Assembly (NCBI RefSeq): GCF_056746865.1
Contig: NZ_CM163382.1
Length of the DNA: 64,000 nt
Reading direction: 5' to 3' (one strand)
The translations under genes were made by a program, and so were the position numbers. The notes under the pieces were generated by a model that saw nothing but the letters and a program-made list of their open reading frames with translations, did no database searches and was not told where the DNA came from. Shown one piece after another: positions 12,734 to 15,175 of the stretch. Positions within the stretch are counted from its first letter, which is position 1, and each line of letters begins with the position of its first letter.

Positions 12734-13521
12734 ATTTTCGTTATGTCCTGGGCCTTAAGTGTATCAAAAACAGCAAGTCCCAAGGCAAAAGCACTGATAG
12801 CGTCTGCTTCATTGCCCCAAAAATAGAGAGGTTTCAGTCCTACATTATTAATGAATTTTTTGCATAAGTGATATCAAAATCCACATACTAATTTGAGGTT
12901 ACGTTTTAACGTAGACTCATTGTTCATACCTAATGGAGGGACTGACAGTGGAATTTTCCGTATTAAGTAACAATCTGAAAATGCCGATGATGGGATTTGG
13001 TGTTTTTCAGGTTACCGATAAAGACGTGTGCAAACAGTCAGTGTTGAATGCTATCCGCACGGGTTATCGACTCATCGACACTGCAGCGGTATACGGTAAT
13101 GAAGATGCCGTCGGTGAAGCCGTTCGTGAAGCTATATCTGAAGGTTTATGTACCCGAGATGAGTTATTTATAACGTCTAAATTGTGGGTGCAGGATATGT
13201 TGAATCAGGATACGGCAAAAGCAGGTATTGAAGCATCATTAAAAAAATCGGGACTAGAATACTTCGACCTCTATTTATTGCACCAGGCTATGCGCGATTA
13301 TTTCAGTGCGTGGCGTGCACTCGAAGATGCCTATGAAGAGGGCAAATTAAAAGCAATTGGGGTTTCCAATTTCTATCCTCATGTTCTGGCGAACTTTTGT
13401 GAAACGGTAAGAGTTAAACCGATGGTCAACCAGGTCGAGTTGCATCCCTATTTTGCCCAACCAGAGGCGCTGGCAACCATGAAGTATTATAACGTGCAGC
13501 CTGAAGCATGGGCTCCGTTAG

Positions 13522-14716
13522 GGAAGGTGCGAACAAGTCCCTGATATGAGATCATGTTTGTCATCTGGAGCCATGGAACAGGGTTCATCATGAGTCATCA
13601 ACTTACCTTCGCCGACAGTGAATTCAGCAGTAAGCGCCGTCAGACCAGAAAAGAGATTTTCTTGTCCCGCATGGAGCAGATTCTGCCATGGCAAAACATG
13701 GTGGAAGTCATCGAGCCGTTTTACCCCAAGGCTGGTAATGGCCGGCGACCTTATCCGCTGGAAACCATGCTACGCATTCACTGCATGCAGCATTGGTACA
13801 ACCTGAGCGATGGCGCGATGGAAGATGCTCTGTACGAAATCGCCTCCATGCGTCTGTTTGCCCGGTTATCCCTGGATAGCGCCTTGCCTGACCGCACCAC
13901 CATCATGAATTTCCGCCACCTGCTGGAGCAGCATCAACTGGCCCGCCAATTGTTCAAGACCATCAATCGCTGGCTGGCCGAAGCAGGCGTCATGATGACT
14001 CAAGGCACCTTGGTCGATGCCACCATCATTGAGGCACCCAGCTCGACCAAGAACAAAGAGCAGCAACGCGATCCGGAGATGCATCAGACCAAGAAAGGCA
14101 ATCAATGGCACTTTGGCATGAAGGCCCACATTGGTGTCGATGCCAAGAGTGGCCTGACCCACAGCCTAGTCACCACCGCGGCCAACGAGCATGACCTCAA
14201 TCAGCTGGGTAATCTGCTGCATGGAGAGGAGCAATTTGTCTCAGCCGATGCCGGCTACCAAGGGGCGCCACAGCGCGAGGAGCTGGCCGAGGTGGATGTG
14301 GACTGGCTGATCGCCGAGCGCCCCGGCAAGGTAAGAACCTTGAAACAGCATCCACGCAAGAACAAAACGGCCATCAACATCGAATACATGAAAGCCAGCA
14401 TCCGGGCCAAGGTGGAGCACCCATTTCGCATCATCAAGCGACAGTTCGGCTTCGTGAAAGCCAGATACAAGGGGTTGCTGAAAAACGATAACCAACTGGC
14501 GATGTTATTCACGCTGGCCAACCTGTTTCGGGCGGACCAAATGATACGTCAGTGGGAGAGATCTCACTAAAAACTGGGGATAACGCCTTAAATGGCGAAG
14601 AAACGGTCTAAATAGGCTGATTCAAGGCATTTACGGGAGAAAAAATCGGCTCAAACATGAAGAAATGAAATGACTGAGTCAGCCGAGAAGAATTTCCCCG
14701 CTTATTCGCACCTTCC
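13522..14716 (+). mobile_element. IS5, complete (1195 bp), flanked by 4-bp TTAG direct repeats at 13518..13521 and 14717..14720
   Basis: Terminal inverted repeats ggaaggtgcgaa...ttcgcaccttcc read directly; length and target-site duplication match IS5. Confidence 0.9.
13554..14570 (+). CDS. insH: IS5 transposase (338 aa)
   Basis: Protein matches my recollection of InsH ([36 protein letters not shown]...). Confidence 0.9.
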
Positions 14717-15175
14717 TTAGGTGGTGGACGACATAAACCCTTTGAAAATAATCTGCTTCAGAGTATTGCAGATGCCCATCAAAAATCGATTTCTCAAGTC
14801 ATTCTGCGTTGGAATATTCAACGGGGAGTGGTCGTTATTCCGAAATCGACACATCAACAGCGTATCGAAGAAAATTTTGCTATCTGGGATTTCTCACTGA
14901 CAGAGAAAGAAATGGCACAAATTAGTTCGCTTGATTTGGGTTATGTTGGGGAGTCGGTAAAACATTTTAATCCTGAATTTGTTCGTGGTTGTCTTGCTGT
15001 AAAAATACATGATTGATATTAATCATGTATTTTACCTGAGACGACAAGAATCTTTTAACAGGGGAGTGATATTGATCTTCACTCTGTCATATCTCCGGTA
15101 ATATGGCGTCAGGCTTCATCATCAGAAAGGGGGCCTGACGCCTGAAAAAGTGAACAACAGACAGTGTTCGGATTA

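Follow-up and report, generated by a model that had tools for sequence, protein, structure and literature searches.

Why an aldo/keto reductase gene lies in two pieces on either side of an IS5 element, between an AraC/GyrI-type regulator and rclC, and whether its loss matters to the cell, are the questions raised by this locus. It is part of a stretch of 64,000 nucleotides (contig NZ_CM163382.1), hereafter the window. A preliminary description, made from the letters, had read the arrangement as an IS5 insertion that inactivates the reductase, and had suggested that the loss may bear on electrophile or reactive-chlorine detoxification. Taken as a whole, the locus is almost certainly best explained by a recent transposition of IS5 into the equivalent of the K-12 pseudogene ykgQ, which would have left the enzyme dead. 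Such an insertion is a familiar kind of event, and this one is already annotated in two public genomes. The features on which the argument turns are listed here by their position in the window.

11843-12733, minus strand: Rob-like regulator, AraC-type HTH plus GyrI-like domain (Pfam HTH_18, HTH_AraC, GyrI-like)
12948-13521, plus strand: 5' reductase fragment, 574 bp, codons 1-191 and the first base of codon 192 (from excision, translation and the RefSeq pseudogene fragment in strain 118UI)
13518-13521: left copy of the target-site duplication, TTAG, adjoining the left end of IS5
13522-14716, plus strand: complete IS5, 1195 bp (from its ends, its inverted repeats and comparison with K-12 IS5A)
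13522-13537, plus strand: left terminal inverted repeat of IS5, GGAAGGTGCGAACAAG, 16 bp
13590-14570, plus strand: IS5 transposase gene, InsH-type, 326 aa, intact (RefSeq CDS coordinates in 118UI)
14701-14716, minus strand: right terminal inverted repeat of IS5, 16 bp, which reads GGAAGGTGCGAATAAG on the minus strand
14717-14720: right copy of the target-site duplication, TTAG, adjoining the right end of IS5
14721-15016, plus strand: 3' reductase fragment, 296 bp, the rest of codon 192 to the stop (from excision, translation and the RefSeq pseudogene fragment in 118UI)
about 15176-15778, minus strand: rclC (DUF417), last gene of rclABC, uninterrupted and convergent with the reductase

The element between the two fragments measures exactly 1195 bp, in agreement with its first description as a complete IS5. 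Its terminal inverted repeats are imperfect and 16 bp long, as in an IS5-family element of about 1195 bp, and the pattern of these repeats has two matches in the 64-kb window, which are the two ends of the element, where shuffled sequences lead one to expect 0.01. The internal ORF of 326 aa is free of stops, scores 365.7 bits against NF033581 (cut-off 140) and holds the Pfam domains PF01609 (122.9 bits) and PF05598 (75.3 bits); it encodes an intact IS5-type DDE transposase. In the ORF list, the frame of this gene opens further upstream, at 13554, which gives 13554-14570 and 338 aa, and beyond it the list has only short ORFs as far as 15016. ISKpn26 is only 91% identical to the element, and many IS5 copies in public E. 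coli genomes match the allele of the window at 100%. One identical copy of this allele is carried by recurrent 46,161-bp plasmids, beside an IS30-family transposase.

Immediately outside each end of the element TTAG is read as a direct repeat, the duplication that had been reported for both ends. This tetranucleotide conforms to 5'-YTAR-3', the duplication motif of IS5 obtained from 220 reconstructed insertions (PMC5009759). When window positions 12700-15200 were compared by megablast with 5426 complete E. coli genomes, the flanks proved to be contiguous in many of them, with a span of 1302 bp, that is 2501 minus 1199 bp. Strain 2017C-4173W12 has such an empty site, with a single TTAG, and its 1302 bp differ from the flanks in the window by 0 mismatches. 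Removing IS5 and one TTAG in silico yields an open frame of 870 nt from the GTG at 12948, and the gene restored in this way is identical at 870/870 nt to that of 2017C-4173W12 (L002 3249-4118, WP_001309281.1), which is annotated as aldo/keto reductase. Among excision offsets from -6 to +6, every multiple of 3 leaves the frame open, but none of the other frame-restoring offsets could be retained, since only the removal of the element with one TTAG reproduces the intact orthologue exactly. Alignment of the restored frame with intact orthologues, which the preliminary description had called for, thus gives 100% identity. Its figure of about 296 codons stands in one respect and falls in another: the frame is indeed continuous, but its length is 294 aa from the ATG at 12933, the start used there, or 289 aa from the GTG at 12948, the RefSeq start, the two starts being in the same frame.

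Repeats that are present in many copies are a classic source of misjoins, and IS5 is such a repeat in E. coli, being found in 2873 of the 5426 complete genomes and in up to 43 places per genome. One could therefore imagine that the position of IS5 is an artefact of assembly, the assembler having collapsed or misplaced a repeat. We give this idea practically no credence, since the target fits the motif and is duplicated perfectly over its 4 bp, excision restores the gene exactly and the junctions are identical in two independently assembled complete genomes, one from Mexico and one from Japan. Instead, a genuine transposition would account for the locus: a copy of IS5 would have moved into a chromosomal gene for an aldo/keto reductase, located between a ykgA-like regulator and rclC and surviving in K-12 as the pseudogene ykgQ, at the TTAG shared by codons 191 and 192. 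No observation speaks against this structural account. Transposition would have duplicated the 4-bp target and split the gene into the 574-bp 5' part and the 296-bp 3' part, so that a truncated protein of 198 aa would be the sole possible product and the enzyme would be dead. The event would also be recent and confined to a small sub-lineage, with relatives that have identical flanks keeping the empty site.

That the interrupted gene is one for an aldo-keto reductase, as first proposed, is well founded, since the restored protein matches PF00248 over residues 23-262 with 148.5 bits, far above the cut-off of 24. Its motifs DTA, AVY, SKLW and LLHQ align with those of the solved structure 1vp5 and contain D44, Y49, K78 and H112, which would be the Asp-Tyr-Lys-His catalytic tetrad of the family. 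All four of these predicted residues lie within the 5' fragment, and an IPKS motif (residues 231-234) lies in the 3' fragment together with the C-terminal portion of the barrel. Among solved structures the nearest is 1vp5, annotated as 2,5-diketo-D-gluconic acid reductase (E = 3e-85, residues 5-284 aligned), and it is followed by 4mhb, a putative aldo/keto reductase (E = 2e-75), by 3b3d, a putative morphine dehydrogenase (E = 5.4e-73) that is YtbE of Bacillus subtilis, by 3d3f, the YvgN protein (E = 1.1e-67), and by 1mzr, 2,5-diketo-D-gluconate reductase A (E = 3.6e-58), which is E. coli DkgA. DkgA and DkgB themselves were considered as identities of the reductase and rejected, as the restored protein scores 235.5 against the NCBIfam equivalog for DkgA (cut-off 425) and 163.8 against that for DkgB (cut-off 327). 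Because it falls below these equivalog cut-offs, the reductase is a separate paralogue, distinct from both. A search of the literature on ykgQ or its intact form, and on ykgA together with aldo-keto reductase or rclR, found no functional information.

What remains of the protein is determined by the point of insertion, which lies after codon L191 of 289. The interrupted ORF continues into IS5 as far as a stop at 13544, and its predicted product of 198 aa, ending in …APLGKVRTSP, consists of 191 native and 7 IS-encoded residues and is without the last 98 residues (192-289), the C-terminal third. The C-terminal segment of the aldo-keto reductase fold comprises the last strands of the barrel and residues that bind the NADPH cofactor. 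Residues 192-289 align throughout with 1vp5 and, because the alignment with this structure covers residues 5-284, the region past residue 191 belongs to the conserved fold. Since the segment that closes the barrel and holds NADPH is gone, it seems safe to infer from the fold that IS5 has inactivated the reductase, in keeping with the preliminary description. Nor does the gene appear to have been decaying before IS5 hit it: pN/pS values of 0.10-0.23 for the restored allele against five intact alleles from other lineages point to purifying selection on the intact reductase.

How exceptional this loss is can be judged from the distribution of the gene. A search with the restored 870-nt sequence found a near-full-length reductase gene in 2937 of 5426 complete E. 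coli genomes and a partial gene in about 2100, mostly as a K-12-type remnant (including K-12 derivatives and BL21(DE3)) and in a few cases split by an IS, while 376 genomes have no match. A near-full-length copy is missing from 46% of complete E. coli genomes, K-12 included. The IS5 insertion itself occurs in two complete genomes, those of 118UI (urine, Mexico) and HR12-1 (faeces, Japan), and in both of them RefSeq treats the aldo/keto reductase gene as two pseudogene fragments with an IS5 transposase between them (Eco118UI_RS01750/RS01760 in 118UI). Strain 90-1 has ISKpn26 in this very TTAG, likewise duplicated, but with the element pointing the other way (L004 2324-3519, junctions read); here a separate event has hit the 4-bp target. 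ISKpn26 is apparently at this TTAG in G3 too, judging from the span of the hit and the annotation. An IS1 lies near reductase codon 39 in SCU-313, whose 25-kb flank is ~100% identical to that of the window, and in LR-17-1, 100416 and XDL an IS5, IS1 or ISKpn26 cuts the adjacent regulator short. From these repeated independent hits and the distribution of the gene it follows that the locus is generally prone to IS insertion and that the reductase is dispensable in E. coli. Many genomes, among them those of CFSAN061770 and WP8-S17-ESBL-12, have flanks that are ~100% identical to those of the window (over 25 kb) together with an empty site, as befits a recent event. The fitness effect of the insertion would be small or neutral.

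On the other side of the reductase, rclC is split by ISKpn26 beside a K-12-type reductase remnant in the O104:H4 strain FDAARGOS_348 (L012 1391-3183), and five more O104:H4 genomes give matches similar to that of FDAARGOS_348, as seen by hit only.

It is less evident whether the insertion in the window and that in 118UI and HR12-1 go back to one event. 118UI is the closest complete RefSeq E. coli genome, none being identical to the whole window, and the two are collinear over the first 46,342 bases of the window. Outside IS5 they differ by 3 substitutions (29347, 33409 and 42608) in 45,147 non-IS bases. Inside IS5 there are likewise 3 differences (14105, 14168 and 14386, where the window has A each time), the same three being found against HR12-1; two of the changes relative to 118UI are synonymous and one gives Y266 in the window versus S266 in 118UI. 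The background rate predicts ~0.08 differences in 1195 bp and, by our own arithmetic, three or more would be met with a probability of ~8e-5. Thus, one insertion inherited without change is not the whole history.

It is possible, though rather doubtful, that the IS5 of the window is an independent insertion, not inherited from an ancestor shared with 118UI and HR12-1, and that elements of the IS5 family favour the TTAG at codon 191. The excess of changes within IS5 relative to the three in the 45,147 flanking bases speaks for this reading, and so does the presence of ISKpn26 in exactly the same TTAG, in opposite orientation, in 90-1 and apparently G3. However, the same site, the same orientation and the near-identical background favour shared descent plus gene conversion, and the allele of the window is so common, with its many 100% matches, that donor copies are plausible. 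Moreover, the gene has 9 YTAR sites, 4 of which are not TTAA, and two hits would coincide with a chance of 1/9 to 1/4. It is therefore simpler to assume that IS5 inserted once, in an ancestor, and was later altered by gene conversion with another IS5 copy than to assume an independent insertion.

As the gene offers just 9 YTAR sites, which gives this chance of coincidence, the TTAG at codon 191 does not qualify as a significant hotspot. That it is nevertheless a true hotspot for the IS5 family, with at least two hits and possibly three, or that some extra-intestinal or commensal lineages have been under positive selection to lose the reductase, strikes us as unlikely. Should either be true, the locus would show, on a small scale and in nature, how IS elements bring about convergent gene loss.

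The comparison with 118UI brings out two further features of the window. The first is an IS2-like element of 1331 bp at 46343-47673, with ORFs of 136 aa and 301 aa, which lies between yahK and yahL and is surrounded by a 5-bp duplication, GATAG, at 46338-46342 and 47674-47678. Its ORFs and its ends mark it as a probable IS2. In 118UI the site is empty and GATAG occurs there once; the insertion thus tells the source strain apart from the complete genome that is nearest to it. The second is yahN, for a LysE-family transporter, at 49230-49901 (minus strand), which has an in-frame TGA after codon 165, and the same stop is flagged by RefSeq in 118UI. Hence yahN is a second pseudogene in the window.

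Perhaps the insertion has consequences beyond the loss of an enzyme. IS5 can activate adjacent operons, cases being bgl, flhDC, fucAO and glpFK, and one may ask whether the element alters the expression of a neighbour here (rclC, the ykgA-like regulator or the 3' remnant of the reductase itself), or whether the loss of the reductase was selected. Repeated loss by separate routes, through IS5 here, ISKpn26 in 90-1, IS1 in SCU-313 and K-12-type deletions, is what selection might produce, but it is equally expected of a dispensable gene. Furthermore, the insertion is present in only 3 known genomes compared with about 2900 that have a near-full-length gene, and there is no sign of a sweep. As for regulation, IS5 is intragenic, and what follows it is only the 3' remnant of its own target and, beyond that, rclC, which is convergent and turns its 3' end towards the element; the rclC promoter is >2 kb away, beyond rclA, and the ykgA-like gene lies ~800 bp upstream and is divergent. 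A scan of 12650-15250 for promoter and terminator consensus sequences gave 3 matches versus 3.9 in shuffles and 1 versus 1.9, and hence no excess. A regulatory effect of IS5 was rejected on both counts, the scan being no better than shuffles and the geometry being wrong for activation of rclABC. Altogether, an adaptive or regulatory role of the insertion is very improbable, and we retain the plain transposition into a dispensable reductase gene.

Does the loss of this reductase then weaken the defence of the cell against electrophiles or reactive chlorine? Its neighbours are those first reported, the AraC/GyrI regulator on one side and rclC on the other. The regulator begins at 12700 in RefSeq (CDS 11843-12700 in 118UI), has RobA as its best NCBIfam match, with a score under the cut-off of that family, and is the intact counterpart of the K-12 pseudogene ykgA, divergent from the reductase. 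From 15176 onwards the order is rclC, rclB, rclA and then rclR, with rclABC convergent with the reductase. Because the reductase is on the plus strand and rclC on the minus strand, it does not belong to the rclABC transcription unit and lies outside this operon. In K-12, rclA, rclB, rclC and rclR are annotated as intact, yet the reductase is reduced to the 129-bp remnant ykgQ. Another reductase gene, a paralogue with 44% identity, is intact at 6052-6903, 6 kb upstream, a second and more distant aldo/keto reductase is found at 5036-6025, and an OYE-type flavin oxidoreductase and YahK are encoded in the window as well; redundancy of the reductase function is plausible from this gene content. Given the distribution of the gene, this redundancy and the convergence with rclABC, the cost of the loss to electrophile or chlorine defence is probably small. 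Nothing that we found supports the role in electrophile or reactive-chlorine detoxification suggested by the preliminary description, and the convergent orientation, the K-12 remnant, the absence from 46% of genomes and the paralogue weaken it.

The segment upstream of the regulator differs from K-12 in its own right. Positions 497-6903 encode an NADH-dependent flavin oxidoreductase, an alpha/beta hydrolase, two LysR regulators and two aldo/keto reductases, and form a cluster of redox or detoxification type, whereas the K-12 counterpart is only ~1.1 kb long, with the pseudogene ykgP, between ykgR and eaeH. Next to it, fdeC (eaeH), which encodes an inverse-autotransporter adhesin, is intact at 7469-11722 (plus strand, 1417 aa); in K-12, IS3A has cut fdeC/eaeH, now a pseudogene, and has taken part of ykgA with it.

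For annotation, the two reductase fragments are to be treated as one IS5-disrupted pseudogene, the equivalent of ykgQ, rather than as two genes, and beyond this correct annotation the insertion is of little importance. It could serve as a marker of a small sub-lineage, and strains with and without it, in near-identical backgrounds, are convenient natural isogenic pairs for work on the function of the reductase. More generally, the locus illustrates the repeated decay of an accessory gene of detoxification type in E. coli by deletion, IS1, IS5 and ISKpn26.

Each part of the locus has a known counterpart from which it departs in a definite way. The element resembles IS5 as represented by IS5A (insH) of K-12 MG1655 in its length of 1195 bp, its 16-bp repeats, its 4-bp YTAR duplication, its 326-aa DDE transposase and its nucleotide sequence, which is identical at 1190/1195 positions (99.6%), but differs from it in 5 bases. 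The enzyme shares PF00248 and the D-Y-K-H residues at the expected motifs with the small aldo-keto reductases of the DkgA/DkgB, YvgN/YtbE and TM1009 types, but is set apart from the DkgA/DkgB type by scores below both equivalog cut-offs. The disrupted gene as a whole corresponds to the split pseudogene of 118UI and HR12-1, with identical insertion site, orientation, duplication and flanks, and is distinguished from it by the three single-base changes inside IS5. Lastly, ykgQ (b4631) of K-12 occupies the same ykgA-rclC interval, and its remnant aligns with the 3' part of the gene in the window at 98% identity. However, ykgQ has suffered internal deletions of ~585 bp and 91 bp and is annotated as a remnant of 129 bp, whereas the gene in the window has kept all its bases and is interrupted by the IS alone. 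This alignment shows K-12 ykgQ to be a deletion remnant of the very reductase gene that IS5 has split here.
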